DNA of 64,000 nucleotides from Clostridiales bacterium (GCA_031276195.1 JAISNN010000077.1:5165-69164), one strand, 5' to 3'. Positions 6,991 through 53,220 are shown, numbered from the stretch's first letter. A program made the numbers and translations. The notes: generated from the sequence alone by a model not told the origin.

Positions 6991-7240
6991 AAGATATGTT
7001 CCTTCCGGCTGTAAAATTTAAATTCCTCTCGATTCCGTAGACTTTCCGCGCTTTCTTTGCTCGCCTATAAGCGTTCGGCTTTTATATTTTACATAAATTT
7101 CGTATTCGCTTTACGTCTTTATAAGCCTTTAAATTCCTCTCGGTTCCGTAGCCTTTCCGTATTTATTCTATCGCGCCGTAAGTCTTGAATTTCTCAAAAA
7201 CGGCGATAAATTCCTCAAAAATCTCCCGCAAATCCGCCCG

Positions 7241-8683
7241 TTAAATCATTCTCTCCTCTTTCGCCCGCACAATCGCCTTCAAAAGCGAATATTCATTCCC
7301 GCTGTCAACGTCCGCGCCGATTTCCCAGCAAAAAACGCCGCTAAGACCGCTGTGAATCGCATACGCGGTTTTGTCGTAAATCAATTGAGGGCTGTTGAAC
7401 GCGCAAACCTCGCCCGTCGCGCCGTTTATAAGGCGGTTGTCAAAATAATTTTCACGGCGAAAAACGGGATTCCCGAAACCTATCTGCCTTGTAACCGCGT
7501 TTACGGGCGTGCCGTAGAACGGCATTCCGAGAACGATTTTTTCACGCGGAAAGCCTAAGTCCAAAAAGTAATTTACGGGCTGCAATACGCCCGAAAGAAA
7601 CGATCCGCCGTTTCCGTCTTGGTCGTATTGGTCGTAGCCCATAAGGTTCACATAATCGATCGCCACGCGCGCCTCTTCGCCGAACAGGCTCTGCCCCCAA
7701 CCGTACAACGCCAAAGATAACTTTATATTCCGCGCCGCAAACTCCGCCTTTACGTCCGTGATGTACGCGCTGAACAAACGGAAATCTTCCTCGCCCACCG
7801 GAAATTCCCAATTAAAATCTATCCCGTCCGCGCCGTATTTTTCGGCGAGTTCCGCGATATTGACGATCGACGCGCCGCGCGCCTTCGATTTAAGCAAAGC
7901 CGTCTCCACACCCGAAACGGTAATGAAAACCTCGTGACGCTTGTTCAACAAAACGGACTGCGCGTGAATTGCATCCGTCGTGATTTTTAATTCGCTTTCG
8001 CCGTTTTCCGATATGCGCTCGACGGCTGTTCCGTCCTCCGGATTCATTTTTACGCCGCTTATAACCGTGAAACGGTCGTAACCCGAAAAAATTCCGTAGT
8101 CGAACGGCTCGCCTTTTATGACGTTCTTGGGGATTCGACCGCTGATAAGATATCCCGCGGCGGTAAATCCGCCCGGCTTTTTCGGGACGTTAAACGCCTC
8201 GCATTCGATGAGTCTCGGGATAGCGATAGAATCGGTGATTTCAATTTTCAGTTTGGAAGACGTAACGGGCGAAAAGGCGAGATAGCGGTAGTCCTCAATC
8301 TTGTCCTGCCTCAAAAGAAAACGGTATTCCCCCTCCGCGTCCAAATAAAAAACCGAAAATTCCTTGACGTTAAAGCCCTTTTCACGCAAAATGACCGTGT
8401 TGAATACCGCGGGTTCGCCGAGATCGACGACGACGGAACCGGTTTTCGCGCGCATCGTGATATAAGTGGAATAATCTCCGTCCGTAAACAATCCGGGACT
8501 TCGCGCGGCGGCTTCCACCCGCTTTCCGCGCGCGAGATTTTCCGCGGACGTGTGGACGCTTTCACGGGTATAACCGACGTTTTCGCCGGCGTACGCGGCG
8601 AAAAATATAAGCGAAACAATGATTGCGGCGGCGGCAAAGCCGCATAAAATATAACGCGCTCTTTTCATACGGACATTATACAT
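7241..8683 (-). CDS. secreted glycoside hydrolase family 18-like protein with N-terminal discoidin (F5/8 type C)-like domain
   Basis: N-terminal signal/anchor; central beta-sandwich-like region; C-terminal TIM barrel with YGADGIDFNWEFP (variant of the GH18 DxxDxDxE motif, D-to-N at the third acidic position), MGYDQY, and CWEIG motifs; the start is uncertain (TTG 8686, ATG 8683, ATG 8667). Confidence 0.65.
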   Translation of the reverse strand: MYNVRMKRARYILCGFAAAAIIVSLIFFAAYAGENVGYTRESVHTSAENLARGKRVEAAARSPGLFTDGDYSTYITMRAKTGSVVVDLGEPAVFNTVILREKGFNVKEFSVFYLDAEGEYRFLLRQDKIEDYRYLAFSPVTSSKLKIEITDSIAIPRLIECEAFNVPKKPGGFTAAGYLISGRIPKNVIKGEPFDYGIFSGYDRFTVISGVKMNPEDGTAVERISENGESELKITTDAIHAQSVLLNKRHEVFITVSGVETALLKSKARGASIVNIAELAEKYGADGIDFNWEFPVGEEDFRLFSAYITDVKAEFAARNIKLSLALYGWGQSLFGEEARVAIDYVNLMGYDQYDQDGNGGSFLSGVLQPVNYFLDLGFPREKIVLGMPFYGTPVNAVTRQIGFGNPVFRRENYFDNRLINGATGEVCAFNSPQLIYDKTAYAIHSGLSGVFCWEIGADVDSGNEYSLLKAIVRAKEERMI

Positions 8684-12900: not shown

Positions 12901-13670
12901 CTTTCGGTATTTTCTCCGTCTTTTCCGCCTTTTTCCGCGCCGAAAAGTTTGACCGTCAAGGTCAAATCATACGTTCCGTCCGCGTTTTTGTCCGTATCGG
13001 CGAAGTAGTCTCCGATGAATATTTCGTTATATTCGGTGATATAGACGTCCCGAAAAATCCCGTTTTCCCTGAACATATCCTGACATTCGAGATACGTTCC
13101 GTTGCACCACTTATACACGACGGCGAGCAATTCGTTTTCGCCTTCCGCTATATATCCGTCGATTTTAAACTCCGCGCCGTTGTGTCCGCCCTCGCCGTAT
13201 CCTACGAACTTCCCGTTTATATACACGTCCGCGCAAGCCGCCGCGCCCAAAAAGGTTAAAATATAATTTTTGTTTTCGATAGACTTTACGTCGAATTTTT
13301 TGACGTACACGCCCGCCGGGCAGTCCTCGGGGAAATGCGGCGGATTTGTCTCGAAAGGATACCGTACGTTGAGGTATACGGGGGGTTCGTAACCCGTTCT
13401 CTGCCAGCACGACGGGACTTTAATGCCGTCGAAACTCTCCGCGTCCGTATCGAAGACGTCCGGGATCAGCGAAACCCTTTCAAAATATTTAAATTTCCAA
13501 TCTCCCGAGAGGAGGTTCACCCTTTTCGATTGATATCTTTCGGTCATAAAGTCAGTGTTTTCGAGTTCTTCCGCGCTTGAAAAAGGAATAAAATAAGCCC
13601 TCGGCGCGAGTCTGTTTTTTTCAAAAATTTCAAACGTCTTATAATTTGTTTTGTCGATTTGATATTTCAT
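9954..13670 (-). CDS. beta-galactosidase, glycoside hydrolase family 2, with two low-complexity insertions
   Basis: LacZ-like: sugar-binding domain, NHHDS, WSLGNEAG (acid/base Glu), CEYAHAMG (nucleophile Glu), C-terminal small-chain domain. The start was moved to ATG 13668-13670 (MKYQIDKTNY) with RBS AAAGGGGAA; the upstream 41 codons of the track ORF are Lys-rich junk. Confidence 0.85.
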   Translation of the reverse strand: MKYQIDKTNYKTFEIFEKNRLAPRAYFIPFSSAEELENTDFMTERYQSKRVNLLSGDWKFKYFERVSLIPDVFDTDAESFDGIKVPSCWQRTGYEPPVYLNVRYPFETNPPHFPEDCPAGVYVKKFDVKSIENKNYILTFLGAAACADVYINGKFVGYGEGGHNGAEFKIDGYIAEGENELLAVVYKWCNGTYLECQDMFRENGIFRDVYITEYNEIFIGDYFADTDKNADGTYDLTLTVKLFGAEKGGKDGENTESLNAVSIEKAENPDTGNVNSESIEKAETADAENTGTAENTEKNETVSIEKTEKNNDGNAVIQNVNLKERAKAPSFADFILKAELKYKGGVIAAERAETADANPSLSLKKLAVKEWSAEIPEIYELIITLEKRGNDGEKGEIYDVIRNYTGFKTIEIDGNVFKLNGKKIKIKGVNHHDSTPSGGYVMTAEELKKDVLLMKEYNVNGVRTSHYPKDPVFVTLCDVYGLYVIDEADIETHGCFDQKKWNIFNRQPGMNRISDDPKWEKHYTDRVKRLYYKDRNHPSVIMWSLGNEAGGIANQDACYKLLKSEGAKAPVHYEGARHTKRKYYDVRSTMYPFMSHVSRVVKGTALPGYQKVPYFFCEYAHAMGFGPGNLREYVEAFYSSDILMGGCIWEFADHAVLHETGECQTGKNPKETENGKSQNGKSQSGVETAENEIQNKESRTENENGKSQSGISKKEFKTAIPLREGNFSGGVISGITETENEKFQTETEKTEAQNEIGAVKSQAGNDGANAGNSGNANKYKYTYGGDHGEKIHDGNFCVDGLFYPDRTPHTGALNMKAVYRPVRASLSEAGVYAFENTNRFLPSGYIEIEWKLLKNGIKAESGSIDADIPPESVQKIAVPHRKIDKSGEYHINFLYRDRRDGHIIAEEQIELQTVPSVFKSEETSYKAEIVDGAAALTVKFKGGSAEFDKTAGRMTSLKYKEKEYLNRNPEGGITGFYPSVYRAPLDNDNMIRVLYKKFGIDGLSPRLKKFSASLVGENGEKIKKKSKTEAKKAEIKILYSLEGKYKLFNVSVVYVIDGKGKITVTARLTVAALLCKVYKRMLPIPRFGLEVEIDGKYDNAEYFGTGGGETLPDMTDHAAVGIYSKKVSELRERYIKPQDSGNRSGVRYLKIFDAKGNGLIFKKSGENFNFAANRFTTKQLAEAKHQEDLIEKNTVNLRIDGFVRGTGSNSCGPLPLKKYTIDMNRPLIFSFSIEPINR

Positions 13671-13964
13671 TGCCGTTCCCCTTTTTTTTATTGAATTTCC
13701 GTATAAATCTTTTTTTTTGAAAATGCAACGTTTTTTTGAATTTTTTATAAATCTTTTTTTTAGGAATTTCCGTTTTTTTATACGGAATTGCAAACGAAGG
13801 TTTTTTTATTGAATTCCGCATAAATCTTTTTTTTTGAAAATGCAACGTTTTTTTAGAATTTTTTATAAATCTTTTTTTTGATATAAATACGGCCGCTTCC
13901 AAAATGCTTTTTTAGAAACGGCCTAAATTCACAGTTTATACACGCTAAACTTTAAAATACGGAA

Positions 13965-15200
13965 TTACAAGCCCTTCTCGTCGTAAAGCAAAACCGTATC
14001 GGTAACGATGTCGAACGCCTTTCCGAGAGTTTCGGGCGAGAGGTTGTCTTTCGTATCCTCTCTGGTGTGGTAGTAACTTTGCAAATTGTGATCCAATCCC
14101 GAAAGGCAGGTCGATCTGATCCCCGCCTGCGCGAAAGCGGCGGCGTCCGTCGCGCCCAAAGTAACCGTCGCGTAAGGAAGATCTATACCGTTCTTTTTAC
14201 CGGCCTCTCTGACCAGCGCGGCGGTGTCCAAATCGTTTTTAACTATTCCGTTGATGTCTTTCGTGTATAGGCAGAAATGCTCCGATTCTCTCAGCGTCTC
14301 CATACAAATCACGACGGTGGGAATATTTTCGGGCGAATTTTTCAATTCGGGGTGATTCTTTGCGAAAGCCTTCGCGCCGCGCAGACCGGCCTCCTCCGCG
14401 CCCGAGATCAGGACGCAAAGTTCCGTATTTTGAAGTTTGATTCCCGCCTCTTTCAACGCTTTCGGCACGGCGAGAGAAACGTAACACGCGGTCAAATTGT
14501 CGTTCGCGCCGTCGACCACGACTTTTTTGTTGTGGAATTTATAAAGCGCGGCCCAAACGACCAAAAACACAAGCCCGATAAGCCCTAAAACGAGCGAAGC
14601 GTTTTCTGCCGTCGCTTGAACGAAAATGCCGCTTGCGTCCGCTAAATCTATCGATATGCACGATATGACGACGACGTATACCGCGCCGATAAGAGAGCCG
14701 ATAAACACGGTTACCATACCCTTCATTCCGAATTTATAGAGCCAAAACCATTCCTCCGTCGCGTCGGCGTGTCCGTTGACGATGATTCTTCTTTTGACCT
14801 CGCCTTTCGGTTTTATAACGCCGTAGACGTTGACCGACTCCGCCTTTTTGTAGAGGGGGTCGAACCAGGTTTTATACAGAACGAGTTGCGAAACCATAGG
14901 TATAAACGCCAGCAAAACTAAGATGATCGAGATGATCGGCGCGAAAAAATACGCCGCCAAACTCAAAATCAAAAGCGTCGCGGTTATGTAGATCCAATCC
15001 ATAAAGGAATTCGGGTGAAGTTCAAACTTCTCGTCCGTAACCGTATCGCAAATCTTTTCCAATTCGGTCTTGAAATAAGCCTGCGCGTCTTTTTCGCCCT
15101 GCGTTCCCGGAAAACGCTTTCCGAACGTGTCCGTAACATGACCGATCCCGTCGACCATATACTTCACGGAATCCGACCTGATCTTTTCAGAAATCTTCAT
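13965..15200 (-). CDS. M28-family peptidase-like membrane protein
   Basis: peptidase M28-like N- and C-terminal halves (HADATEE..., ISGAEE.GLRGA, HT.ED) interrupted by about 4 TM helices. The start was set to ATG at 15198-15200 (MKISEKIR) with a perfect AAGGAG RBS. Confidence 0.55.
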   Translation of the reverse strand: MKISEKIRSDSVKYMVDGIGHVTDTFGKRFPGTQGEKDAQAYFKTELEKICDTVTDEKFELHPNSFMDWIYITATLLILSLAAYFFAPIISIILVLLAFIPMVSQLVLYKTWFDPLYKKAESVNVYGVIKPKGEVKRRIIVNGHADATEEWFWLYKFGMKGMVTVFIGSLIGAVYVVVISCISIDLADASGIFVQATAENASLVLGLIGLVFLVVWAALYKFHNKKVVVDGANDNLTACYVSLAVPKALKEAGIKLQNTELCVLISGAEEAGLRGAKAFAKNHPELKNSPENIPTVVICMETLRESEHFCLYTKDINGIVKNDLDTAALVREAGKKNGIDLPYATVTLGATDAAAFAQAGIRSTCLSGLDHNLQSYYHTREDTKDNLSPETLGKAFDIVTDTVLLYDEKGL

Positions 15201-16367: not shown

Positions 16368-17555
16368 ATGAAAAATTTCAAAATCTCAATCAAAAAAACA
16401 GCCGCCCTCGCCGCCGCCCTGTCTCTCCTCATCGCCGCGCTCGTTTCGTGCCAGCACTCGTCGCCGAAAAGCCTCGCGCGCGCCTACGTTACGGATTATA
16501 AGGCGATGAACGCGGCGGGAATTACGGGACTGTACCGCCACGAAAACGACGGCGAAAGAGAAGAATTTAAAGAAGCCCTCGAAAAAACCTTCGGGGACGC
16601 GTCCGAAAGCGAAAAAACAAGCGTCAAATCCGCGAAGTTTAAGGGTTACGAAAAGACGGACGGGAACAAAAATTCGGAAACGGGCGTCGTTAAGATCGCG
16701 GTCAAAACGGGCGGAAACGGCGGAAAAAACGAGCGGAACGTCCCTATGAATTTCGTGAAAATCAAAAATAAATGGTATATCAAAAAGACGCAAAATCAAG
16801 AAACCCAAATATCCGTAACCGCGGCTAAGCCATACGAAACGGATATTGCAACAAACAAAAAAACAAGCGGCGCAAAAAATTTTAGTGCGTACGCAAAAGC
16901 AAACGGCGTAAAGAATTTTATTATGAACGCAAAAACAAGCGGCGCAAAAAATGTCATTATGAACGCAAAAACAAACGGCGCAAAGAATGTCATTATGAAC
17001 GCAAAAACAAGCGGCGCGGCGGATTTTAATATAAACACCTCAATGAACGCCGAAGTAAACGGTACGCCGAACGCCGGAAAAAATGTGAAAGATTTTTTTG
17101 AAAATTTCGGCGAACGGATAAAGAATGCGGCGGAAAAAATGCGATCCGAACTCGGCGGTTTTTTGAACGACGCGGCGGATAAAGCGAAGGTCCTTATCGA
17201 CGGCGTAATCGCTTCCGCGAAAAAGATAAACTCCGGATTCGCCGCCTTCGCGAAAAAAACGGCGGATAAGGTGAAAAACTTTGCGGACGGAATTATTAAT
17301 TCCCTTCAAAAAACGAATTCAAAATTCGCGGGTTTTGCCAAAAACGCGGCGGACAAAGCCCGAACCGTTATAGACGGAATTATTAATTCCACAAAAAAAT
17401 TCAACGCGGAATTCGGGAAATTTGCCAAAAACGCGGCGGATAAAGCCCGAACCGTTATAGACGGAATTATTAATTCCTCAAAAAAATTCAACGCGGAATT
17501 CGGAAAATTTACCAAAACGCGGCGGATAAAATCAAGACCGTACCCGACGGCATAA
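16368..17555 (+). CDS. repeat-containing lipoprotein (signal peptide with LVSC lipobox), probably 3'-frameshifted
   Basis: MKNFKISIKKTAALAAALSLLIAALVSC; internal tandem repeats NAKTSGAKNVIM x3 and AADKARTVIDGIINSxKKFNAEFGKFAKN x3. The last repeat shifts frame at an A4 run (17507-17510) where earlier copies have A5; the +1 frame continues the repeat (..DKIKTVPDGIIAAHRRRNVI*). Confidence 0.6.
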   Translation: MKNFKISIKKTAALAAALSLLIAALVSCQHSSPKSLARAYVTDYKAMNAAGITGLYRHENDGEREEFKEALEKTFGDASESEKTSVKSAKFKGYEKTDGNKNSETGVVKIAVKTGGNGGKNERNVPMNFVKIKNKWYIKKTQNQETQISVTAAKPYETDIATNKKTSGAKNFSAYAKANGVKNFIMNAKTSGAKNVIMNAKTNGAKNVIMNAKTSGAADFNINTSMNAEVNGTPNAGKNVKDFFENFGERIKNAAEKMRSELGGFLNDAADKAKVLIDGVIASAKKINSGFAAFAKKTADKVKNFADGIINSLQKTNSKFAGFAKNAADKARTVIDGIINSTKKFNAEFGKFAKNAADKARTVIDGIINSSKKFNAEFGKFTKTRRIKSRPYPTA

Positions 17556-17817
17556 TCGCCGCCCACCGCCGTCGCAACGTGATTTAAATTATACAAAACG
17601 GAGGGCTTAATTTAAGTCCTCCGCTATAACGCTTTTCCGCGCTTCTATACCGCGGAATATTCGCCTTTTCTTTGCCTTTCTCAAAGCGTTTTCCGCAATT
17701 CAAAATTGAAAAATTTACGCTCTTTTTTATAACACTTTTCCGCGCTTCTATACCGCCTATTTGCCGCCCCTTATTTAGCCCTACGCGGATTAAAATCAAA
17801 ACGCAGCCGGCGGTTTT

Positions 17818-19175: not shown

Positions 19176-19618
19176 CTAACAATGCCAAACGCATCTCGCC
19201 GGGTTCGGCTCGTTTTCCACCGCGACCGCCCGTAACGCTGCGGTATAGTCCGCGCAAACCTCCTCGGCAATTCTATCATACTCCGCTTCGTCCGCGCCGA
19301 ATCCCAATTTAAATACTTACGCGCCTAACAATGCCAAACACATCTCGCCGGGTTCGGCTCGTTTTCCGCCGCGACCGCCCGCAACGCGGCGGTATAGTCC
19401 GCGCAAACTTCCTCGGCGATTTTATCATACTCCGCTTCGTCCGCGCCGAATTCCAATTTAAATACTTACGCGCCTAACAATGCCAAACACATCTCGCCGG
19501 GTTCGGCTCGTTTTCCGCCGCAACCGCCCGCAACGCGGCGGTATAGTCCGCGCAAACCTCCTCGGCAATTCTATCATACTCCGCTTCGTCCGCGCCGAAT
19601 CCCAAGCGGTCATAAGCG
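19176..19618. repeat. three tandem copies (about 149 bp) of the 3'-terminal coding segment plus stop of the 19474..20004 gene
   Basis: copies at 19176-19324, 19325-19473 and 19474-19618 (the last is the real gene end); each begins CTAACAATGCCAAAC (stop codon on minus strand). Confidence 0.85.
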
Positions 19619-20004
19619 ATTGCCGCCGCCGCGTAAAAATACAACCCAAGCGAATGCGGCGCGGCGTGTATACTTCCCGCCGCCTGTCCGACGGCTCTCG
19701 CGGCGGCTTGCGCGATCGGATTGTTCTCTTGCTCGCGCGCGGCGGCGTGGCACTCGTTCAAAATGATATTTTTCACATACGGCAGTTTAACCTTTCCGTC
19801 CAGCCATTCGCGCGCGGCGGCTATCGCGCGGACGGGACGCGAATCATTCGGGCAATACCTCTCAAACAACGGAATCATCCGCCGCTCGGCATAATTCAAC
19901 GTCCAATTCGCAACCGTGATTTTGCTCTGCGTTTCGATCAGCCGCATCAGCGCGGCGACGGACGGCGACCCGACCTTGCCGAGAGTTTTTCTCAATTTTT
20001 TCAT
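19474..20004 (-). CDS. hypothetical alpha-helical protein (possible immunity-like protein)
   Basis: 176 aa; Ala-rich helical, no catalytic motif; RBS AAGGAG; embedded in a duplication array. Confidence 0.5.
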   Translation of the reverse strand: MKKLRKTLGKVGSPSVAALMRLIETQSKITVANWTLNYAERRMIPLFERYCPNDSRPVRAIAAAREWLDGKVKLPYVKNIILNECHAAAREQENNPIAQAAARAVGQAAGSIHAAPHSLGLYFYAAAAIAYDRLGFGADEAEYDRIAEEVCADYTAALRAVAAENEPNPARCVWHC

Positions 20005-20500
20005 TTCGCATTCTCCTTAGCGCAAAAAGCCGCGATCTCCGCAATGAGTTCTATCGGCAAGGGCTTATTATTCGGGAATTGCACCGCGCCCTTGCTTGTT
20101 TTGTATTCCGTCAATTTATCGGCAAAAAAGGCGACCGCCTTCCAAAAAAGTCTTTCTCAATTTTTTCATTCCGCATTCTCCTTAGACGCAAAAAAACGTG
20201 ATCTACGCGATAAATCAGAACGAATTACCGCCCATTTCACCGAATATCTTTCTCAATTTTTTCATTTCGCATTCTCCTTAGCGCAAAAAACCGTGATCTA
20301 CGCGATAAATCATAACAAACGACAACCGCCTTCCCAAAAAGTCTTTCTCAATTTTTTCACTTCGCATTCCCCTTAGCGCAAAAAGCCGCAATCTCCGCGA
20401 TGAGTTCTATCGGCAAGGGCTTATTATTCGGGAATTGCACCGCGCCCTTGCTTGTTTTGTATTCCGTCAATTTATCGGCAAAAAAGGCGACCGCCTCCAA
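19983..20500. repeat. array of four duplicated gene-junction units (3' end of a DUF1801-like gene + stop + RBS + start of the next gene)
   Basis: the unit TTTCTCAATTTTTTCAYTTCGCATTCYCCTTAGCGCAAAAA recurs at 19983, 20172, 20252, 20346; a 130-bp segment at 20024-20152 duplicates 20388-20516. Confidence 0.8.
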
Positions 20501-21028: not shown

Positions 21029-22543
21029 TCACAGTTTCCCGATATCAAGAACTTTTTTTACCGCGTCCGCGATTTTTCCGTCGTTTTCGATTTCATAATC
21101 GGCGAAGTTTTCATACAAACTTTTGCGCGCGGAAAAAAGTTCCGCGGCGGAAAATTTTGCCGACAGCGGTCTGCCCGCCGACGCCAAAAGGTTCAGTCCG
21201 CGTTTAACATATATTATAACCGCGTTCTGTTTGAGCGCGTAATAATTCTCACGGTTCAAGACGACGCCGCCGCCCGTCGAAATGACGCTTCCGCTTGTTT
21301 TGCCCGCCTCGCGGACGGCGAAAGCCTCTCTTTCGCGGAAATATTTCTCGCCTTTTTTTTCAAAAATATACGGTATGGACGCGCCCTCGCGCCCCGCGAT
21401 TTCCTCGTCCGTATCGATAAATTTTCTGCCCGAAAGGGCGGCCGCCGTTCTGCCGATCGAAGACTTTCCGGAGCCGGGCATACCTATCAAAACTATGTTT
21501 CTTTTTTCGATTGTTATATCACGTGTTATGCTCTCTATAACGCGGTTTTCGATACTTTTTCCCGTGAAAAGTTCGGCGGCGAATTTCGCCTGCGCGACCA
21601 GCATTTGCAGCCCCGAACAACACCTTATTCCCCTCTCCTCCGCAGAAAAAATCAGCCTCGTTTTCAAAGGATTGTATATGACGTCCGCAACCGCCTCCAA
21701 GTTCTTAAAGCGCGCCAAATCGACTAAGCATTCCCCGTTGTCCGGGTACATTCCGACGGGCGACGCGTTGATCAAGACCGCGGCGTTCGCCGAAAAATTC
21801 ATATAGTTTTCATAGTTTACCGCGCCGCGCCGCGAAACGACAGTGATACTTCCGACTCCGAGAGAATTCAAAACCGCCTTGACCGTCGCGGTCGTACCGC
21901 CGTCGCCGAGGATAAAAACATCCTTGCCGCGGACGTCGATTCCGTTCGCCTCCAAAAGGTATTTGAAACCAAAAAAATCCGTATTATAGCCGACGGTTAC
22001 GGTTTCGTTCTCCGCTCCTTTATTTTTTAGAATTTCGTTTTCGTATCCGCTCTTTATTCCGCGTGCCGCGGTTACGGTTTCATTTTCCTGTTTTTTTTGT
22101 ATCTCGTTTTCCGCTCCTTCATTCTTTATTCCGTATGGCGCGGTTTCGTTTTCATTTTCCTGTTTTTTTTGTATCTCGCTTTCCGCGTATCCGCTCTTTA
22201 TTCCGTGTGCAGAGGTTTTGCTTTCCGCTTCTTTGCCTTCATCTTTTTGTGTTTCATTCTCTCCTTGTCCGCTTTCAAATTCGGCGGCGCGCCTCTTGAC
22301 GACGGTATTGACCGCGCCCGAAAGCGACGCGCTCGCGTCTATCCGGTCGAGAAATTTCACGACGGTTTTTTTATATGGAATCGTAACGTTGAACGCGTCT
22401 ATACCGCTCCTTATAAAGTCCTCTATCCCGTCCTCTTTAATCTCGATAAGCCGATACGAATACGCGCCGTCGGACAACCGCCGGTGTATTTCGGCGGAAT
22501 AACTGTGTTTCAGGCTCGCGCCGATAAGACCGCATTTTAACAT
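21029..22543 (-). CDS. aroE/aroK: bifunctional shikimate 5-dehydrogenase / shikimate kinase (AroE-AroK fusion) with low-complexity insertion
   Basis: N-terminal AroE substrate domain (GLIG.SL.HS.S..IH, N.T.PYK, GAVNT), Rossmann GDGG.T, C-terminal kinase with GMPGSGKS Walker A, DTD, STGGG; about 95-aa repeat insert at about 21990-22275. Confidence 0.85.
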   Translation of the reverse strand: MLKCGLIGASLKHSYSAEIHRRLSDGAYSYRLIEIKEDGIEDFIRSGIDAFNVTIPYKKTVVKFLDRIDASASLSGAVNTVVKRRAAEFESGQGENETQKDEGKEAESKTSAHGIKSGYAESEIQKKQENENETAPYGIKNEGAENEIQKKQENETVTAARGIKSGYENEILKNKGAENETVTVGYNTDFFGFKYLLEANGIDVRGKDVFILGDGGTTATVKAVLNSLGVGSITVVSRRGAVNYENYMNFSANAAVLINASPVGMYPDNGECLVDLARFKNLEAVADVIYNPLKTRLIFSAEERGIRCCSGLQMLVAQAKFAAELFTGKSIENRVIESITRDITIEKRNIVLIGMPGSGKSSIGRTAAALSGRKFIDTDEEIAGREGASIPYIFEKKGEKYFREREAFAVREAGKTSGSVISTGGGVVLNRENYYALKQNAVIIYVKRGLNLLASAGRPLSAKFSAAELFSARKSLYENFADYEIENDGKIADAVKKVLDIGKL

Positions 22544-22589
22544 TTTTGCAACCCTTAATTTAAATATTTTAAAAACTTTATTTTCCCGT

Positions 22590-22960
22590 TTAATGCCCTC
22601 ATATTCGTTCTATATATGTTTTTCCGTCTGTTATATAACTGTTTTTTTTAGTTTTCCGCGATACCGTACCGCGTTTTTTAAGGGATTTTCCGCCGTATTT
22701 ACGTATGTTTTTCATATCGTTTTACGGAGGATTTTCAGCCTTATTTCACGCGGTACTATGCCGCGTTTTTTAAGAGATTTTCCGCCGTATTTACGTATGT
22801 TTTTCATATCGTTTTACGGAGGTTTTCAGCCTTATTTTCCGCGATACCGTACCGCGTTTTTTAAGAGAATTTCCGCCGTATTTACGTATGTTTTTCATAT
22901 CGTTTTACGGAGGTTTTCAGCCTTATTTTCCGCGGTACTATGCCGCGTTTTTTTAATGGA
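22590..22960. repeat. about 95-bp tandem repeat x3.3
   Basis: unit TTCCGCGATACCGTACCGCGTTTTTTAAGGGATTTTCCGCCGTATTTACGTATGTTTTTCATATCGTTTTACGGAGG.TTTCAGCCTTATT. Confidence 0.8.
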
Positions 22961-22962
22961 TT

Positions 22963-24126
22963 TTAATAAAATTCCTCATAAATTTTATTGTCGGGCATAT
23001 CCGAAATTTCCGCGTAATTGCCTATAAAGGTTATATTATACGCCTTACCCGAAAGTTCTTTCAAAAGTTCCAAAAGCCCCGTATTTTTCAAATTCGCCTC
23101 GAAGTCAAAATAGAACATAAATTCAAAATCCGTCTCGGGAATGGGGCGGCTTTCCAATTTCGTCATATTATACGACGCGAACTTCTTCAAAAAATTTAAG
23201 AGGCTTCCGTTGGTATGCGGCAGCGAAACCATTATGCTGACCCTATTCGCGCCCGCGTACACCGCCATTTTTTTGGAAACGCATATAAATCTCGTATAGT
23301 TGTTATCATTGTTTTGGATGTTCGCTCTGACGATATTCATATCGTATATCGACGCGCAAGCCTTAGACGCGATCGCCGCGATATCCGTCCTCCCCGACTC
23401 CTTGACGTTGACGACCGACTGCGCGGTATTCTCCGCAAAGACGGCTTTCAACCCGTTCGCTTTCAAAAAATTTCCGCATTGAGCGATCGCCTGTTCGTTT
23501 GAATAGACCTCTTTTATGTCCTTCAATTTGACGCCCTTCGCCGCGATCAGGTTATGTTCGACTTTGATTCTCGCGCTTCGGACGATATAGAGTTTATACT
23601 TGCGCATAAGGTCGTAGATCTCGTTGACCGATCCCGCCGTGCTGTTTTCGATCGGCAGCACTCCCGTCTCGCATTCGCCGCCGTCCACCGCCTTAAAGAC
23701 CTCCCCGAACGTGCCGTAAAAATTTATATCGGGGTCTTTAAAGAGTTTGTTCGCCGCAATGTACGAAAACGCTCCCTTCGCGCCTTGACAGGCGGTTTTA
23801 AGCCTTTTCGGGAATTGCGGAAGGTCGCAAGACAGCATTCTCTCCAATTCGTCGAACACGGTATAGACCTTATATTCCGATTGAATTTTTCGGCTCGTTT
23901 CGAATATGACGGAATAAAGTTCCTTGATGCAGGCGGCGGTTTTCGCGTCGTAGCCCGCGGTCAGCCTTTCGATAATTTTGTTCTCGCGGTATACGTCGAG
24001 AACGTCGATTCCGCCCGCGCGTTTCAGTTCGCCGATACGGCGTACAAGCCCGACTCTTTCGGCGTAATCCTTTGCGATTCTGTCGTCTACGACGTTGATC
24101 AGGTTTCTCAAATCCTCAATGTTCAT
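22963..24126 (-). CDS. pheA: chorismate mutase / prephenate dehydratase (P-protein)
   Basis: 387 aa; N-terminal AroQ-class chorismate mutase helices, PDT domain (QGAKGAFSY, PIENS.AG.V, TRF), C-terminal ACT. Confidence 0.85.
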   Translation of the reverse strand: MNIEDLRNLINVVDDRIAKDYAERVGLVRRIGELKRAGGIDVLDVYRENKIIERLTAGYDAKTAACIKELYSVIFETSRKIQSEYKVYTVFDELERMLSCDLPQFPKRLKTACQGAKGAFSYIAANKLFKDPDINFYGTFGEVFKAVDGGECETGVLPIENSTAGSVNEIYDLMRKYKLYIVRSARIKVEHNLIAAKGVKLKDIKEVYSNEQAIAQCGNFLKANGLKAVFAENTAQSVVNVKESGRTDIAAIASKACASIYDMNIVRANIQNNDNNYTRFICVSKKMAVYAGANRVSIMVSLPHTNGSLLNFLKKFASYNMTKLESRPIPETDFEFMFYFDFEANLKNTGLLELLKELSGKAYNITFIGNYAEISDMPDNKIYEEFY

Positions 24127-24351
24127 AATTGTTATTCCTTTTTTATATTGAATTCGTTTATTTCTTTAAAGCCGCAAGCCGCGTTTGTATGCTTTTTTGT
24201 TTTTTTATTTGCATTTTTTATTGTATTTCGTTTTTTACTTGCTTTTTCAATTTTTTACGTTTATTTTTATTGTATTTCGTTTTTTGAATTCTTTTTATGC
24301 CTTTTCTTTTTGAATCGCTTTTCCGCGTTTATTTTTTCCCGGTTTGCCGTT

Positions 24352-25671
24352 CTACAACAAAAAATCTACCAAAGCGCACGCCGCCGCCGCCTCTATGACG
24401 GGAACGGCTCGCGGAACGATACAAGAATCGTGCCTGCCCGGGATTACAATTTTCGTATTTTTTCCGCTCGCGGCGTCGATCGTATCCTGCTCTTTCGCGA
24501 TCGACGGAACGGGTTTTATCGCGGTTCTGAACAAGATCGGCATACCGTTGGAAATCCCGCCCGTGATTCCGCCGTTGTTATTCGTCTTGGTTTTGACATC
24601 GGCTTTCGCGCCCGTTTGCGCGCCGCGCTTCTCCGGATTTAACCCGTTTTCGCGGCAAACGCCGGATTTTTCCGAATTTGACGCCGGATTAAAATAAGCC
24701 GTATTCTTTTCCGGATTCGATACGCTATTGCCGCAAGCCGCGTCTCTTTCCGGATTCGATACGCTATTGCCGCAAGCCGTGCCTCTTTCCGGATTCGATA
24801 CGCTATTACCGCAAGCCGTATTCTTTTCCGGATTTTTTTCCTCATAATAAATCGCGTCGTTCGCCGCGCTTCCGCGCATTTCCGAAAGTTTAAAGCCCCC
24901 TCCGAATTCAATCCCTTTAACCGCGGGAATCGCAAAAATCAACTTCGCGATACTCCCCTCTATGCCGTCATAGACGGGTTCGCCGATGCCGGCGGGCAGC
25001 CCCGTTACGACGCATTCGACCACGCCGCCCACCGAATCGCCATCGCGCGCCGCCGCGGTGATCTCTTCTATTATAGCCGTTTCGTATGAAAAGTCAAGCA
25101 AAGGATAAACCGCCGATTTCATTTCCGCGATTTTTTCACGGTTAAGTCCCTCTATCCCGCCGCCGTCAAGGTAAGAAACAGCCCGAACACGCCCGACGGA
25201 CGCCAAATATGCGGCGATTTCAACTCCGCGCGCCCTCAAAACCGAAAGCGCGACACTCCCCGCCGCGCACAAAGCCGCGGTCAAACGCCCCGAAAACTGT
25301 CCGCCGCCGCGATAGTCGTTATATCCGCCGTATTTTACATAGGCGGCATAGTCGGAATGCGACGGTCTGAACGCGCTTTTCAATATTTCATAGTCCGAAG
25401 AGCGCGCGTCGGCGTTTTCTATGATTATGCAAAGGGGCGCGCCCGTCGCCCTCCCGTCGAGCAGCCCCGACAAGACGACGGGGCGGTCGGTTTCACGCCT
25501 CGCCGTCGAATGAGCCGCGCTTGACGGACGCCTGCGCGCCAAAAAAGCGGCGATTTCGTCTAAGTCGATAGGCGTACCCGCGGGGATTCCGTTTATGACG
25601 ACGCCCATCGCCTTTGAATGAGACTCCCCGAAAATGTCGATTATAAAATTTTTTCCGCATATGAACGCCAT
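24352..25671 (-). CDS. aroC: chorismate synthase with tandem-repeat insertion
   Basis: 439 aa; GESHG-like N-terminus (FGESHSKAMGVVI.G.PAG), conserved C-terminal core; about 95-aa insert (24580-24865) containing 3 x 16-aa repeats ACGNSVSNPE(R/K).. Confidence 0.9.
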   Translation of the reverse strand: MAFICGKNFIIDIFGESHSKAMGVVINGIPAGTPIDLDEIAAFLARRRPSSAAHSTARRETDRPVVLSGLLDGRATGAPLCIIIENADARSSDYEILKSAFRPSHSDYAAYVKYGGYNDYRGGGQFSGRLTAALCAAGSVALSVLRARGVEIAAYLASVGRVRAVSYLDGGGIEGLNREKIAEMKSAVYPLLDFSYETAIIEEITAAARDGDSVGGVVECVVTGLPAGIGEPVYDGIEGSIAKLIFAIPAVKGIEFGGGFKLSEMRGSAANDAIYYEEKNPEKNTACGNSVSNPERGTACGNSVSNPERDAACGNSVSNPEKNTAYFNPASNSEKSGVCRENGLNPEKRGAQTGAKADVKTKTNNNGGITGGISNGMPILFRTAIKPVPSIAKEQDTIDAASGKNTKIVIPGRHDSCIVPRAVPVIEAAAACALVDFLL

Positions 25672-25898
25672 TTGCTTTTCCGCTCCCTTTTTTCGGTCTT
25701 TTTTTATATTTTATTTGTATTTTTTAATGCTTTTTTTTTGCGTTTTATATGTTTTCTTATGTTCTTTAATGCTTTTTTTTGCGTTTTTTTGCGTTTTATA
25801 TGTTTTCTTATGTTTTTTAATGCTTTTTTGTGTTTTTTTAGGCTGTTCCGCTCCGCGTGAGGGGGACGGGGCGGCATTGCTTTCTCACCCGATAACGG

Positions 25899-27803
25899 TT
25901 ACGCTTTCAGCCCTTCCAAATCCTCGAAAAAATCCGGATAAGATTTATTCACCGCTTCCGCCCCGACAATCTCCGCGGAAGAGCGGCAAATCAATCCCGC
26001 GACGGCGGCAGACATAACCATTCTATGGTCGTTATACCCGTCCAAAACGACGGTTTTTCCCTTCGCGTCTTTCCCGAATCCGCCTCCGCCGCCGTCGATT
26101 GTCAGGGTATCCCCGTCCGCAACCGCCGCGACGCCCAAACGGACGAGCATTTCCGCGGTCGCTTCGAGCCTGTCGCATTCTTTCAACCTCAATCTGCCGG
26201 CGTTGTATATGACGGTTCGTCCCGAAGCCGCGCCCGCCGCGACGGAAATTATAGGGATTATATCGGGTATATTTTTCGCGTCGATTTCAACGCCTTTCAA
26301 AGAAGATTTTTTGACCTCTATACCGCATTTTTCCGCGCCCGTTTCATTCGTTTCGCCGCATTTATTTTCACATATTTTACCGCGCTCTATACCGCGGTTC
26401 TTATCCGTTTCTCCGAATTCCGCGCCACAGTTTTTTTCCGTTTCGCCGCATTTATTTTCACACATTTTACCGCGCTCTATACCGCGGTTTTTATCCGTTT
26501 CTCCGAATTCCGCGCCGCCGTTTTTTTCTCTTTCGTAATACTCTTTTTCCCCCGTTTCGTTATGCTCTATACCGCGGTTTTTGACCGTTATATCGCCGCC
26601 CATACGCCTTATTATATCGACAATTTCTCTGTCGGGCTGCTTTGAATTAAGGTCTAATCCCTTCAAAAATATATCACCGTTCAAAACTCCCGCGACGATA
26701 AAAAACGCCGCGTTCGACCAATCTTTTTCAATCTCGACATACCCGGGAGAACGATATTTTCCGATATATTTATTACCCCCTAAACCGACCGCCGCCGCTT
26801 CAAAAGACGGACGGCTTTCACTATTTCCGGTATGTTTTTCATTTTCGCCCTCAATCGGCGCACACTCAGATTGCGGATATTTTTTTCCGTTTATAATGTA
26901 TTTCCCGTTTTCGCAACAGACCGCCGCCGCGCCGAATTTTTCCAAAACACCGAGTGTTATGTCGATATATCCCGCCGATTCGGGAGCGTTTCCGCACGAG
27001 ATAACGCTTTCGCCCTCTAAAAGAGGCAACGCCATAAGCAGTCCCGAGATAAATTGCGAACTGACCTTTCCGCCAAGCGTAAAAATTCCGCTTTTCAGCC
27101 GCCCGGACGTCCTCAAAATCCGTCCGTCTTTCAAGACTTTTACGCCGTTTTTTTTCATCGCGTCCGTCAATTCGTCCGTCGGGCGTTCGGGCAGTCTGCC
27201 GCTCATATGAAACTCCGCGTCGAACCCCAGCGCGGCGGCAAAAGGAAGCAAAAAACGCAGCGTCGAGCCGCTTTCGCCGCAGTCCAAGATCTTTATTTCG
27301 CCGCTTTTTTCCGCATTTAAATTTTCGGTGCTTGCGTTTCCGTCCGCTTTAAAATTCTTTATTTCGCCGCTTTTTTCCGCATTTAAATTTCTTATTTCCA
27401 CGCTCTTTTCCGCGTCCGCACCGCCCTTAATCCTCAAATCGGAAAGCGGAAATCCCTCTTGCTTGACCAAAAAATCCGCTTTTAAATTCCTTATTTCACC
27501 GCCGTTCCCGGCGTTTTTATTTTCGGTATCTTTATTTCCGTCCGCGTTTTGTCCCCGTTTTAAAATAGGCGTAATCTCGCAAGCCCCGTCCGGCATATCT
27601 CTAAATTCCGCGCCCAAAGCCGTCAAACACCGCCTCGTCGCCGCCGTATCCGCGGAATCGTTCAGCCCGAAAACGACGGTTTTTTTGTCCGCCGCGGCCG
27701 CGCAAATCATAACTCTGTGCGCGGCGGACTTCGACGTAATCACTTCGACCGAACCTTTTAAAAACGCGCCTTTTATAATTTTATTCATTCCGCTCCCATC
27801 CAT
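25899..27803 (-). CDS. aroA: 3-phosphoshikimate 1-carboxyvinyltransferase (EPSP synthase) with two repeat insertions
   Basis: 634 aa versus about 430 typical; conserved EPSPS blocks at the N-terminus, middle and C-terminus (..DHRM.M..A.A.L); inserts at about 27265-27560 and 26290-26620 (GETDKNRGIERGK.CENKCGET x2). An alternative start ATG at 27788 (MNKIIKG) has the better RBS (GGGAG). Confidence 0.85.
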   Translation of the reverse strand: MDGSGMNKIIKGAFLKGSVEVITSKSAAHRVMICAAAADKKTVVFGLNDSADTAATRRCLTALGAEFRDMPDGACEITPILKRGQNADGNKDTENKNAGNGGEIRNLKADFLVKQEGFPLSDLRIKGGADAEKSVEIRNLNAEKSGEIKNFKADGNASTENLNAEKSGEIKILDCGESGSTLRFLLPFAAALGFDAEFHMSGRLPERPTDELTDAMKKNGVKVLKDGRILRTSGRLKSGIFTLGGKVSSQFISGLLMALPLLEGESVISCGNAPESAGYIDITLGVLEKFGAAAVCCENGKYIINGKKYPQSECAPIEGENEKHTGNSESRPSFEAAAVGLGGNKYIGKYRSPGYVEIEKDWSNAAFFIVAGVLNGDIFLKGLDLNSKQPDREIVDIIRRMGGDITVKNRGIEHNETGEKEYYEREKNGGAEFGETDKNRGIERGKMCENKCGETEKNCGAEFGETDKNRGIERGKICENKCGETNETGAEKCGIEVKKSSLKGVEIDAKNIPDIIPIISVAAGAASGRTVIYNAGRLRLKECDRLEATAEMLVRLGVAAVADGDTLTIDGGGGGFGKDAKGKTVVLDGYNDHRMVMSAAVAGLICRSSAEIVGAEAVNKSYPDFFEDLEGLKA

Positions 27804-28143
27804 AAATTTTTTAATTCAAATACGCATTTTAAAAAACGCAAAACGCAACTTTTCAATACGGAATTCTAAATATGACTTTCAAAGTCAAAATCTAAAACCA
27901 TAAATCCCAAAGCTTGAAATTCCGAATACCGATTCTGATTCTAAAATTCCAAATCTGAAATCCCAATTCCTAATTCCTAAATCTAAAATCTCAAATCCCA
28001 AATCCCAAATCTCAAATCTGAAATTCAAAAATCCCGAATTTCTAAAATCCTAAACCCTAATTCCTAATTCCTAAAATCTAAAATCCCAAAATTCTAAATC
28101 CCGATTCCAATTCCAAAATTCTAATTCCAAACCGTTCGCGCCC

Positions 28144-29448
28144 TCAACCGCCGATCCTCAAAAAATTCCTTATCTCTTTTGCCGGAATTTCCTCGACGGC
28201 GCACCGCCCTATACCGCGAATCACGACCGCCCCCAGCATCGCGCCGCTCATTTTTTTGTCGGAAAGTATGACCTCCGACATTTCGTCTATCCCGTACGGA
28301 CAGGGTATATCAAGACGGTTTTTTGAGAGCAGTTTCAAAATTCTTTCGTATTCGCCGCCGCTCAAAAAGCCCTTTTCACGCGACAAAGCCGCGATATATA
28401 AAAGCCCTATCGACACGCATTTCCCGTGGCGGATTTGATAGCCCGATAACTTTTCGACGGCGTGTCCGATCGTATGCCCGAGGTTGAGAAGCCGCCTGAC
28501 GTTTTGTTCTTTCTCGTCCGCTTCGACGATTTCCGCTTTTACGGCGACGGAAAGCGCGATAATTTTCTCCCAATTATAGCCGCCGTAAGCGTTTTTTCCG
28601 GTTTCATTTTTCTTTTCCGAACCGCCGCCATGCCCCGTACTATCGTTATTTTCTTCAAAACCGTCGTAATTTTCGGTATTCCCGTTATTGTTTTTCAATC
28701 CGCCGCTATGCCGCGCGCTATCCTTGTTTTCTTCGAAACCGTCGTAATTTTCGGTATTCCCGTTATTGTTTTTCAATACGCCGCTATGCCGCGCGCTATC
28801 GTTATTTTCTTCAAAACCGTCGTAATTACGGTTGTTTTCATTGTTTTTTTCCAATTCGTCCAACAGTTCACCGCCCTTTAAAATCGCGTGCTTCACAATC
28901 TCGCCCATTCCGTCGGCGATCAAATCCTCCGACAGCGTTTTCAAAAATCCGATATCGCAAAGCACCGCCCGCGGTTGATGAAACGCCCCCGCGAGATTTT
29001 TTCCGGTCGAAAGGTTTATGCCCGTCTTGCCTCCGACGGACGAATCGACGGCGGCGAGCAGCGTCGTGGGTATCTGAACGAGGTTTATTCCGCGCAAATA
29101 CGTCGCCGCGGCAAAGCCCGCGAGATCGCCCGTTACGCCCCCCCCGAGCGCGGCGGCGGCGTCGCTCCGCGTCAATTTCGCCTCCGCCAAAAACTCCAAA
29201 ATTTTAAAATATTCGGCGGAATTCTTTGAATTTTCTCCGCCCGTAAAGGTATGGGAAAAGACCTCGAAGCCCGCCGATTCGAGCGATTTTACGACGCGCG
29301 CGCCGTAAAGCCCGAATACCGTGCGGTCGGATATAAGGGCGATTTTACGGACTTTTTTTAAGCGTTCTTTGAGCGCGCCGCCGAAGTCTATGCCTTCGCC
29401 GATCACAACGTCGTAGCCTCCGCCGGCATTTACGCGAATTTGCGTCAT
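28144..29448 (-). CDS. aroB: 3-dehydroquinate synthase with repeat insertion
   Basis: 434 aa versus about 360; NAD-binding GGGV.GD.AGF.A, metal-binding H..GH..E motifs; insert 28565-28865 (NYDGFEENNDSARHSG.LKNNNGNTE x3). Confidence 0.85.
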   Translation of the reverse strand: MTQIRVNAGGGYDVVIGEGIDFGGALKERLKKVRKIALISDRTVFGLYGARVVKSLESAGFEVFSHTFTGGENSKNSAEYFKILEFLAEAKLTRSDAAAALGGGVTGDLAGFAAATYLRGINLVQIPTTLLAAVDSSVGGKTGINLSTGKNLAGAFHQPRAVLCDIGFLKTLSEDLIADGMGEIVKHAILKGGELLDELEKNNENNRNYDGFEENNDSARHSGVLKNNNGNTENYDGFEENKDSARHSGGLKNNNGNTENYDGFEENNDSTGHGGGSEKKNETGKNAYGGYNWEKIIALSVAVKAEIVEADEKEQNVRRLLNLGHTIGHAVEKLSGYQIRHGKCVSIGLLYIAALSREKGFLSGGEYERILKLLSKNRLDIPCPYGIDEMSEVILSDKKMSGAMLGAVVIRGIGRCAVEEIPAKEIRNFLRIGG

Positions 29449-29459
29449 ACTTTCCTCTC

Positions 29460-29640
29460 TTTTTTATAACTTTTTTTTAGCGGTACTATACCGCGTTTTT
29501 TGTGATATTTTTAAATGCTTTCAAATGAGTTTTTCTTTACGTTTTCCGCCGCTTATTTATAACTTTTTTTCCGCGCTTCTATACCGCGTTTTTTGTGATA
29601 TTTTTAAATGCTTTCAAATGGATTTTTTCGTTCTTTAATA
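29460..29640. repeat. about 100-bp direct repeat x2
   Basis: ATAACTTTTTTT..GCGCTTCTATACCGCGTTTTTTGTGATATTTTTAAATGCTTTCAAATG twice. Confidence 0.7.
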
Positions 29641-30465
29641 AACTTTCCCGAACAGCCCCGCAATATCCTTTATCTTTCTCGAAACGGTCTCGAATTCGGA
29701 CGGCAAAATCGACTGATCGCCGTCGCAGAGCGCGTTTTCGGGGTCGTTATGAACCTCGATGATAAGCCCGTCCGCGCCCGACGCGACGGACGCATACGAC
29801 ATAGGCGCGACGAGCCGCGCTATACCCGTAGCGTGGCTGGGGTCTACGATCACGGGAAGGTGCGTCGCCTCCTTTATGAGCGGAATACAAGAAAGGTCTA
29901 AGGTGTTTCTCGTTACGCCCTCGAAGGTTCTGATTCCGCGTTCGCACAAGATGACCTTGCCGTTCCCCTCCGACATAATATATTCCGCGCTCATCAAAAA
30001 TTCCTGAACCGTATTGGCAAGCCCGCGCTTCAATAAAATCGGCTTATCGAGCCGCCCGAGTTCTTTTAACAGTTCAAAATTTTGCATATTCCGCGCCCCG
30101 ACCTGAATCACGTCCACATCGGCGAAAAGCCCGATATGCGCGATGTTCATAATTTCGGTCACGATCGGAAGCCCCGTGATACTCTTAGCCTCCAAAAGGT
30201 ATTCCATTCCGAGCGCTTTCAACCCTTGAAAGGCGTATGGCGACGAACGCGGCTTAAACGCTCCGCCGCGCAGAGCGTGCGCGCCCGATTTTTTGACGCT
30301 TTTTGCGATTTCGACGATTTGCGCCTCCGACTCGACCGAGCAAGGTCCGGCGATGACCGTAAAGTTTTCGCCGCCGATTTTGACGCCGCCGCCGATGTCG
30401 ACGACCGTATCCCCGGGATGGTTTTTCCGGCTGACGCTTTTGAACGCCTTTTCTTTGAGTTCCAT
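29635..30465 (-). CDS. aroF: 3-deoxy-7-phosphoheptulonate (DAHP) synthase, type I-beta (KDO8PS-like)
   Basis: 276 aa; AGPC.VES, LRGGAFKPR.SPY.FQG, KRG motifs of AroG/KdsA-family DAHP synthases. Confidence 0.85.
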   Translation of the reverse strand: MELKEKAFKSVSRKNHPGDTVVDIGGGVKIGGENFTVIAGPCSVESEAQIVEIAKSVKKSGAHALRGGAFKPRSSPYAFQGLKALGMEYLLEAKSITGLPIVTEIMNIAHIGLFADVDVIQVGARNMQNFELLKELGRLDKPILLKRGLANTVQEFLMSAEYIMSEGNGKVILCERGIRTFEGVTRNTLDLSCIPLIKEATHLPVIVDPSHATGIARLVAPMSYASVASGADGLIIEVHNDPENALCDGDQSILPSEFETVSRKIKDIAGLFGKVY

Positions 30466-43633: not shown

Positions 43634-43710
43634 AAAGCGGTTTCCTCCTTTTTTTAGAATTCATTATTTTTTGTTTTTAAAGCGTTTTTTTGAATTTATT
43701 TCTTTCGTTT

Positions 43711-49106: not shown

Positions 49107-49134
49107 AAAAAACGCGGTTGGTTTGCCGCGGAAA

Positions 49135-53183: not shown

Positions 53184-53220
53184 AAAACGTATAGTTTAAA
53201 AAAATAAAAAATAAAAACAG

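Follow-up and report, generated by a model that had tools for sequence, protein, structure and literature searches.

How can the central enzymes of a bacterium be padded with extra sequence, and where does that sequence come from? The question is raised by a 64,000-nucleotide stretch of DNA from an uncultured Clostridiales bacterium (GCA_031276195.1 JAISNN010000077.1:5165-69164; this whole 64-kb stretch is called the window), in which a minus-strand aromatic amino-acid operon at 21.0-30.5 kb encodes the shikimate-pathway enzymes AroE-AroK, AroC, AroA and AroB in forms enlarged by in-frame inserts. In bacteria genomes tend to be compact, with core enzymes of nearly constant length. The inserts are probably the output of tandem duplication (a minisatellite process) that is unusually active in this Clostridiales lineage, and whose products selection filters without making use of them. 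An earlier note on this DNA had taken the inserts to be recent tandem repeats, a reading that is amended here in two respects, in that the inserts are not all recent and that the inserted DNA consists in part of a palindromic element with dispersed copies.

Anatomy of the inserts

Insert positions were set by alignment to solved structures, with repeats identified by Tandem Repeats Finder (TRF). The relatives referred to are L157 and L156, which are the closest, L075, and the two useful relatives yielded by a genome-collection scan with AroC, L001 and L002, both of which are without inserts. L001, the metagenome-assembled genome (MAG) Po218_bin70 with 66-67% identity in AroC, is the nearest insert-free relative and has a compact operon. 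In the order of transcription the operon of the window reads DAHPS-aroB-aroA-aroC-pheA-aroE/K, with all six products assigned by Pfam at E-values of 1e-15 to 1e-117; AroC is 100% identical to MDR2091406.1 and AroA is identical to MDR2091407.1 (NCBI MAG proteins, 'Clostridiales bacterium'). The genes are as follows.

21029-22543, minus strand: aroE-aroK fusion (shikimate dehydrogenase and shikimate kinase), 504 amino acids (aa); Pfam Shikimate_dh_N, SDH_C and SKI, and PDB alignments
22963-24126, minus strand: pheA (chorismate mutase-prephenate dehydratase), 387 aa; without insert, its length unchanged from L001 and L075; Pfam
24352-25671, minus strand: aroC (chorismate synthase), 439 aa; Pfam
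25899-27803, minus strand: aroA (EPSP synthase), 634 aa, with three inserts; Pfam
28144-29448, minus strand: aroB (3-dehydroquinate synthase), 434 aa; Pfam
29635-30465, minus strand: DAHP synthase (DAHPS), the first gene of the operon, 276 aa; without insert; Pfam

That four of these enzymes are lengthened by inserts, by an amount put earlier at 20-45%, is borne out by comparison with L001, against which they are longer by 21% to 51% (AroB 434 vs 348 aa, AroA 634 vs 421 aa, AroC 439 vs 362 aa and AroE-K 504 vs 409 aa). The extra residues form six discrete inserts.

22007-22288, minus strand: AroE insert, aa 86-179, at the hairpin turn between 'NTVVKRR' and 'GYNTDF'; 72-bp x2.6 array at 22042-22225, 78% matches
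24598-24831, minus strand: AroC insert, aa 281-358, flanked by strands E274-276 and E359-361; 39-bp x3.6 array at 24696-24834, 88% matches
27285-27569, minus strand: AroA insert 1, aa 79-173; 33-bp x2.1 array at 27343-27413, 84% matches
26760-26879, minus strand: AroA insert 2, aa 309-348; no repeat detectable; L157 and L075 carry variable forms of it
26307-26582, minus strand: AroA insert 3, aa 408-499; 90-bp x2.3-2.5 array at 26331-26589, 82-89% matches
28561-28839, minus strand: AroB insert, aa 204-296; 78-bp x2.6 array at 28622-28827, 91% matches

All the repeats quoted in the earlier note were recovered by TRF, although the ACGNSVSNPER unit of AroC, in which GTACGNSVSNPER is an insert peptide, is 13 aa long and not 16-30 aa as had been given for the set. 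In AroB, with the insert peptide NYDGFEENNDSAR, the units are NYDGFEENNDSARHSG.LKNNNGNTE, while those of AroA insert 3 carry CCGCGGTATAGAGCGCGG, translated NRGIERGK. An AroA insert with repeats is likewise present, but there are three inserts in this enzyme, two of which had gone unmentioned, including the one with the 33-bp x2.1 array. The inserts do contain tandem repeats, in arrays built of 33-90 bp units, but repeats make up just part of the DNA of each insert, and to call them near-perfect was an overstatement, given that the arrays are 78-91% matched and that nucleotide identity reaches ~95% only between some neighbouring copies.

The inserts differ in composition from the enzymes that carry them, with glutamate, asparagine, glycine and lysine making up 52% of insert residues and hydrophobic residues 19%, compared with 41% in the cores. 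On the sense strand A makes up 40% and purines 68% of the insert DNA, an A content intermediate between that of the core (25%) and that of the spacers (46%). The predicted location in surface loops agrees with AlphaFold2 models, in which the AroA and AroC inserts lie between secondary-structure elements. In AroA 369 residues have a predicted local distance difference test (pLDDT) score of at least 90, while the segments below 50 (aa 88-134, 145-167, 314-344 and 413-488) are each flanked by two strands; in AroC the segment below 50 (aa 287-354) lies between strands 274-276 and 359-361. On these models the inserts are probably floppy, disordered loops.

The enzyme cores are, as judged by sequence comparison, under purifying selection, with non-synonymous over synonymous substitution ratios (dN/dS) of 0.12-0.23 against four relatives and with every invariant column retained (44 of 44 in AroA, from an alignment of 79 homologues, and 65 of 65 in AroC, from 76 homologues). 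This pattern indicates that the enzymes are still functional. Differences among repeat copies are mostly non-synonymous, indicative of relaxed constraint within the inserts.

Frame, genomic scope and turnover of the arrays

Merging of overlapping TRF rows gave 49 arrays in the window. The period is divisible by three in all 12 of the arrays that lie within genes (periods of 15-90 bp), compared with seven of the 33 intergenic ones, and in every insert only the frame in use is stop-free among the three sense frames, so that the earlier statement that the repeats keep frame holds throughout. Arrays cover 32.4% of the intergenic DNA of the window compared with 4.1% of its coding DNA, the coding density being 73% and the median spacer 343 bp.

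The inserts are not specific to the shikimate pathway. A composition scan found similar hydrophilic low-complexity segments in 10 of the 41 proteins of the window compared with one of 12 in L001, with inserts of the same kind counted in two ABC exporters. Proteins of normal length are AckA, Pta, Asd, DapA, SerC, AroQ, GalE, RpiB, DAHPS and PheA. In PotA the insert amounts to 72 extra residues between residues 117 and 122 of E. coli PotA. Enlarged proteins outside the operon include the following.

47490-49106, plus strand: PotA, 538 aa; insert at 47844-48059, aa 119-190, with AEKRQALK-type repeats
43711-46734, minus strand: ABC exporter, 1007 aa; two inserts, aa ~601-653 and ~768-830, with a tail of LKNETDEFKKT x5 (11-aa units)
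9954-13793, minus strand: LacZ, 1279 aa; two long inserts, aa ~285-360 and ~700-820
51441-53045, plus strand: PotD, 534 aa; long tail

Comparison with relatives places this abundance of repeats in a restricted clade. Repeats cover 11.6% of the window and 14-24% of L157 and L156, compared with 1.8% of L075, 0.6% of L001 and 0-4% of other and unrelated Clostridia. In a neighbour-joining tree of AroC the sequences with an enlarged loop (P0001-P0004, with 29, 48, 77 and 78 residues) form one clade, nested among MAGs that have the usual loop of three residues, as do 70 of the 76 homologues. The sites of the AroB insert and of AroA inserts 1 and 2 are common to the window, L157 and L075, the sequences at them being unalignable, while AroA insert 3 is limited to the window and L157. 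The AroE site is empty in both L075 and L001, L075 having an AroE-K insert at another position, the linker between the AroE and AroK domains, together with an extra N-terminal insert in AroB (regions of L075 with extra inserts, 6476-7786 and 12817-14220). AroA of L157 carries a fourth insert (54-bp x3.2; gene at L157 1953-3851), with the open reading frame (ORF) intact at 632 aa though split by JGI gene calling. In L075 inserts are present with almost no recognisable repeats, which is what the decay of old arrays to plain low-complexity sequence would produce.

These comparisons also divide the question of age. At synonymous sites the window and L156/L157 have diverged by ~0.7-0.9, such that repeat copies differing by ~5% must be much younger than the species splits. 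The sites of the AroC insert, the AroB insert and AroA inserts 1 and 2 are, however, clade-wide and old: the inserts cannot all be recent, since the clade that shares their sites has a synonymous divergence of 0.7-1.5 and since AroA insert 1 contains a conserved core, the 25-aa sequence EIRNLKADFLVKQEGFPLSDLRIK, kept in the window, L157 and L075.

The main process would be local duplication in tandem, through slippage or template switching, given that native codons have been duplicated, that most array units are unrelated to one another and that the six inserts share no similarity beyond a 14-29 nt motif when compared with the window by BLAST. In AroA of L157 the conserved IRRMGGDIT is present three times within a 78-bp array. 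The array in AroA insert 3 is bracketed by the native codons KNRGIE and GIEVKK at its start and end, and the reconstructed pre-expansion sequence VKNRGIEVKKS is as long as the native hairpin in L075 and L001.

The favoured sequence of events would begin with the head-to-tail duplication of A-rich segments of 11-150 bp across the genome, some of them holding a GC-rich palindromic element. Between genes the resulting arrays would build up freely and with any period, reaching 32% of spacer DNA, while within genes the survivors would be those that have a period that is a multiple of three, that lie in turns and loops between secondary-structure elements and that use the stop-free, purine-rich frame, giving hydrophilic peptides rich in E, N, G and K. 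Surviving arrays would be translated as floppy, probably disordered loops on working enzymes and would be close to neutral. Point mutation would then wear the repeats down to plain low-complexity sequence while fresh duplications arose in the same permissive loops, and it is this erosion and renewal that would leave relatives with inserts of unrelated sequence at the same site. The suggestion that a genome-wide mutational process is tolerated by selection is thus supported by the scope of the repeats, the relatives, the retained function and the position of the inserts.

Several points weigh against this account. That copy number is actively changing within the species, and that the inserts are translated, is something we infer; the species is on record from a single contig, and a metagenome scan with AroA for the same species in other samples gave best matches only 43-54% identical. 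The core of AroA insert 1 is conserved across three diverged genomes, which is unexpected of pure junk and means that not everything is recent or obviously neutral. Finally, a palindromic element is present in several inserts, such that local slippage alone is insufficient.

The palindromic element and the rival explanations

The element is a recurrent motif, consisting of an A-run, CGCGGTATAGAnCCGCG and a further A-run, found both in intergenic arrays and in coding inserts. The exact 17-nt pattern CGCGGYATAGNNSCGCG occurs eight times in the window compared with none in shuffles, and four times in the 9 kb of L156 and L157 taken together, where the element also lies in spacers, compared with none in the other 155 loci, which include L075, L001 and L002. 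The element is thus restricted to the repeat-rich sub-clade. Its locations, and the spacers of the operon in which it or other arrays lie, are as follows.

Window, 17638-17757, 22749-22947, 29479-29588 and 49160-49410: palindromic element in intergenic arrays
Window, 49107-49418: intergenic 47-bp x6.7 array with the palindromic element in each unit, CGCGGCTCTATACCGCG on the plus strand
L156, 1326-1342, 1854 and 1899: palindromic element
L157, 359-375, 1223-1239, 3968-3984 and 5472: palindromic element
22544-22962: aroE/pheA spacer, 419 bp; 91-bp x3.3 array at 22652-22953; palindromic element at 22749-22765 and 22931-22947
24127-24351: pheA/aroC spacer; sense strand A-rich; 49-bp x1.9 array
25672-25898: aroC/aroA spacer; arrays of 10, 41 and 51 bp
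27804-28143: aroA/aroB spacer; arrays of 7, 14 and 21 bp
29449-29634: aroB/DAHPS spacer; 93-bp x1.8 array; palindromic element at 29479-29495 and 29572-29588

The array unit of the aroB/DAHPS spacer is 83% identical over 42 bp to the array at 22652. The spacers of the operon measure 186-419 bp in the window, compared with L001, which has four spacers of ~20-70 bp and a fifth of ~150 bp. Upstream of the operon a perfect sigma-70 consensus, TTGACA-17-TATAAT, lies at 30761-30733 on the minus strand, ~270 nt 5' of the start of the DAHP synthase gene, and from its sequence is likely to be the operon promoter; no T-box or other leader was found by Rfam in the long 5' region.

Within coding sequence the element is read in frame as a related peptide, RGIE/DPR, across AroA, AroB and AroC inserts of three genomes, with the consensus (K/N/E-I)RGI(E/D)(P/R)(R/G)K. 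It encodes NRGIERGK in AroA insert 3 of the window, KRGIEPRK, KSGIEPQK and KRGIDPRK in AroB of L157, and EIRGIEPRE and EIRGIDPLK in AroC of L156 and L157. A related form in the AroB insert of the window, CGCGGCATAGCGGCG, is read in another frame (ARHSG). As DNA the element is predicted to fold into a hairpin with a stem of 5-7 bp (-6 to -9 kcal/mol, z-score -2.3 to -4.1). A role for these hairpins as terminators was considered and rejected, the 28 terminator-like sites found not being significantly more than the 21 ± 4 expected and the T-run lying on the antisense strand. Of the core matches in the window, 16 of 17 fall on the minus strand irrespective of how the genes are oriented, which over eight independent loci (seven vs one) is not significant.

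The strongest rival to tandem duplication as the main process builds on this element, holding that the inserts were left for the most part by a mobile palindrome of the kind known from repetitive extragenic palindromic (REP) elements and Rickettsia palindromic elements (RPEs), which would insert between genes and, in frame, within them and then be amplified in tandem, so that the inserts would record colonisation by selfish DNA and not generic slippage. The specificity of the exact pattern to the window and its closest relatives, its presence inside coding inserts of different genes and genomes, the stability of the hairpin and the location of element-bearing arrays, which share a unit of ~45-47 bp, at spacers that are not orthologous from genome to genome are all in keeping with mobility. 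Yet the element is found on just ~6-7 of ~45 arrays and clearly in only two of the six inserts of the window, and the proposal that all the inserts are copies of one element was rejected by the BLAST comparison described above. Nor does AroA insert 3 need any net insertion, the reconstructed VKNRGIEVKKS being of native hairpin length. No transposase or RAYT gene is present among the 41 genes of the 64-kb window, no target-site duplications were identified and a protein search with the element-encoded peptide gave no matches. As the principal origin of the inserts, a mobile palindrome is accordingly rather unlikely, and the element is better regarded as a contributor, acting as a seed for duplication or a donor in gene conversion, than as the full explanation. 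A related reading, in which a short palindrome not described before spreads through the genome of this sub-clade and seeds minisatellites of ~45-bp period, between genes as well as in frame within the surface loops of essential enzymes, is somewhat easier to entertain but is put forward tentatively.

A second alternative is that the inserts are adaptive, providing flexible hydrophilic loops for solubility, for the tethering of enzyme complexes or for regulation and interaction. The conserved core of AroA insert 1, the persistence of insert sites over a synonymous divergence of 0.7-1.5 and the presence of inserts in four of the six operon enzymes would be consistent with such a role, but the sequences at shared sites cannot be aligned, the AroC inserts range from 29 to 78 aa, differences between repeat copies mostly change the protein, the same material is present in non-coding spacers and in unrelated proteins, and AlphaFold2 assigns no confident structure to the inserts, the conserved AroA core included. 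An adaptive origin is on balance improbable.

Assembly is known to go wrong at tandem repeats, and the source of the window is a single MAG contig, such that repeats might have been collapsed or expanded in short-read metagenome assembly. Within the coding inserts, however, exact internal repeats reach at most 26-42 bp, shorter than typical short reads and than the k-mers suggested by the relatives' contig names (k119 and k141, which pertain to the relatives' assemblies), and three further assemblies from other samples carry in-frame inserts at the same loops. Taken with the preservation of frame in all 12 coding arrays, this makes an artefact very improbable. It is scarcely credible that the genes are decaying pseudogenes or that the inserts are removed as introns or inteins, an idea that has nothing beyond the unusual lengths to recommend it, given the conserved cores and uninterrupted frames, the lack of any Hint/intein or other Pfam domain in the inserts and of any Rfam intron in 21-31 kb, and a size (40-95 aa) that is to our knowledge shorter than that of any known intein.

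Other repeats in the window and comparison with known systems

Tandem duplication, the process favoured here for the inserts, has counterparts elsewhere in the window. A lipoprotein-like ORF of 395 aa (16368-17555, plus strand) consists mostly of in-frame 72-bp and 87-bp repeats, with KTSGAKNVIMNA and ADKARTVIDGIINS units, and matches no real Pfam family; on its sequence it may be a protein born of repeat expansion. Four arrays straddle a gene boundary, in each case at the 3' end of the gene. In one (149-bp x2.9, 95% identity, 19176-19605) about 44 last codons and the stop codon of an Imm5-like gene (19474-20004, minus strand) are present in nearly three copies, while a second (95-bp x2.8, 20134-20401) overlaps the 3' end of a DUF1801 gene, the stop codon being included in the copies; the others are at 43669-43916 (the ABC exporter) and 52983-53186 (PotD).

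Array periods cluster near 22, 33, 44-47 and 90-93 bp, and the spacing of A/T-tracts in intergenic DNA peaks at 11, 21-22, 32-33, 43-44 and 53-55 bp, a helical phasing that would imply intrinsically bent DNA. A lysine riboswitch (RF00168, 53796-54008, plus strand, 62.8 bits) is followed by the next ORF ~660 bp downstream, with a 46-bp x7.8 array (54254-54597) in between; 3' of the array are a zinc-ribbon ORF and then asd, dapA and dapB-ACT (54667-59867). Repeat expansion has parted the riboswitch from the genes that it presumably controls. At ~46.7-47.5 kb gene orientation turns from nearly all minus to all plus and the AT skew flips sign; a replication origin at this switch was considered and rejected on finding no DnaA-box cluster, and it is probably a simple divergent gene boundary.

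No prior description of the phenomenon in Clostridia was found in the searchable literature, and the closest parallels come from other organisms. RPEs are palindromic repeats found between genes and, in frame, in unrelated metabolic genes, where they are translated as a conserved peptide at sites tolerated by the fold (PMC10969869; PMC3733652). The element described here resembles them in being dispersed over several spacers and three genes and in being read in frame as the RGIE/DPR peptide in AroA, AroB and AroC. It differs in that RPEs are ~100-150 bp long, fall into defined families and constitute the whole insert, whereas the present element is ~17-29 nt long, makes up the lesser part of the insert DNA and lies within tandem arrays, with the inserts of different genes not being homologous; the host, too, is a member of the Clostridiales and not an obligate intracellular alphaproteobacterium. 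REP elements are GC-rich hairpins of 20-40 bp, present in many copies, often clustered and in some cases intragenic, with a GTAG/CGTC end tag (PMC3733652). A multi-copy imperfect palindrome with a hairpin stem of 5-7 bp is REP-like, but here it is flanked by A- or T-runs and lacks GTAG or CGTC, its arrays are head to tail with a period of ~45 bp and no RAYT is encoded among the genes of the window.

Ehrlichia ruminantium has the lowest coding ratio among bacteria (~64%), with long intergenic regions and the expansion and contraction of tandem repeats in non-coding DNA (PMC10710844). The coding density, spacer length and share of intergenic DNA in arrays of the window are similar in kind; in E. 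ruminantium, however, the plasticity is non-coding and the organism is an intracellular pathogen, whereas here the loops of core enzymes are inflated as well. Phase-variable contingency loci differ in having units of 1-8 bp that shift the frame, unlike the 15-90 bp periods, all divisible by three, within genes of the window, and inteins and self-splicing introns differ from these low-complexity inserts in the Hint domain or intron RNA that the latter are without.

In Plasmodium and other AT-rich eukaryotes conserved enzymes carry hydrophilic, compositionally biased and fast-evolving loop inserts, and the low-complexity inserts of Plasmodium reflect its genome's nucleotide bias and are attributed to slippage. 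The inserts of the window are similar in their hydrophilic, biased composition, loop location, fast turnover and conserved flanks, but they are found in a bacterial genome of 46% GC and are built of 33-90 bp minisatellites, not of homopolymer or trinucleotide runs. What is new is that minisatellites, some of them centred on a palindrome, inflate both the spacers and the loops of enzymes, a combination that none of the RPE, Ehrlichia or Plasmodium systems matches fully.

For annotation and for the quality control of MAGs the case is a caution that such length outliers are real genes and not errors, and the inserts show, as a map drawn by nature, where AroA (the target of glyphosate), AroB, AroC and AroE tolerate insertions. 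If a spreading palindrome is indeed at work, it would join Rickettsia-style selfish DNA and Ehrlichia-style repeat plasticity in one bacterium and would enlarge a good part of the proteome by disordered loops. The window thus offers a bacterial counterpart to the low-complexity problem of Plasmodium and a possible new small mobile or conversion-prone palindrome, in an organism of ordinary-looking metabolism that has a coding density of 73%, minisatellites over a third of its spacer DNA, probably disordered loops of 40-95 residues in roughly one in four of the proteins sampled, and working enzymes padded with junk-like sequence that selection tolerates.

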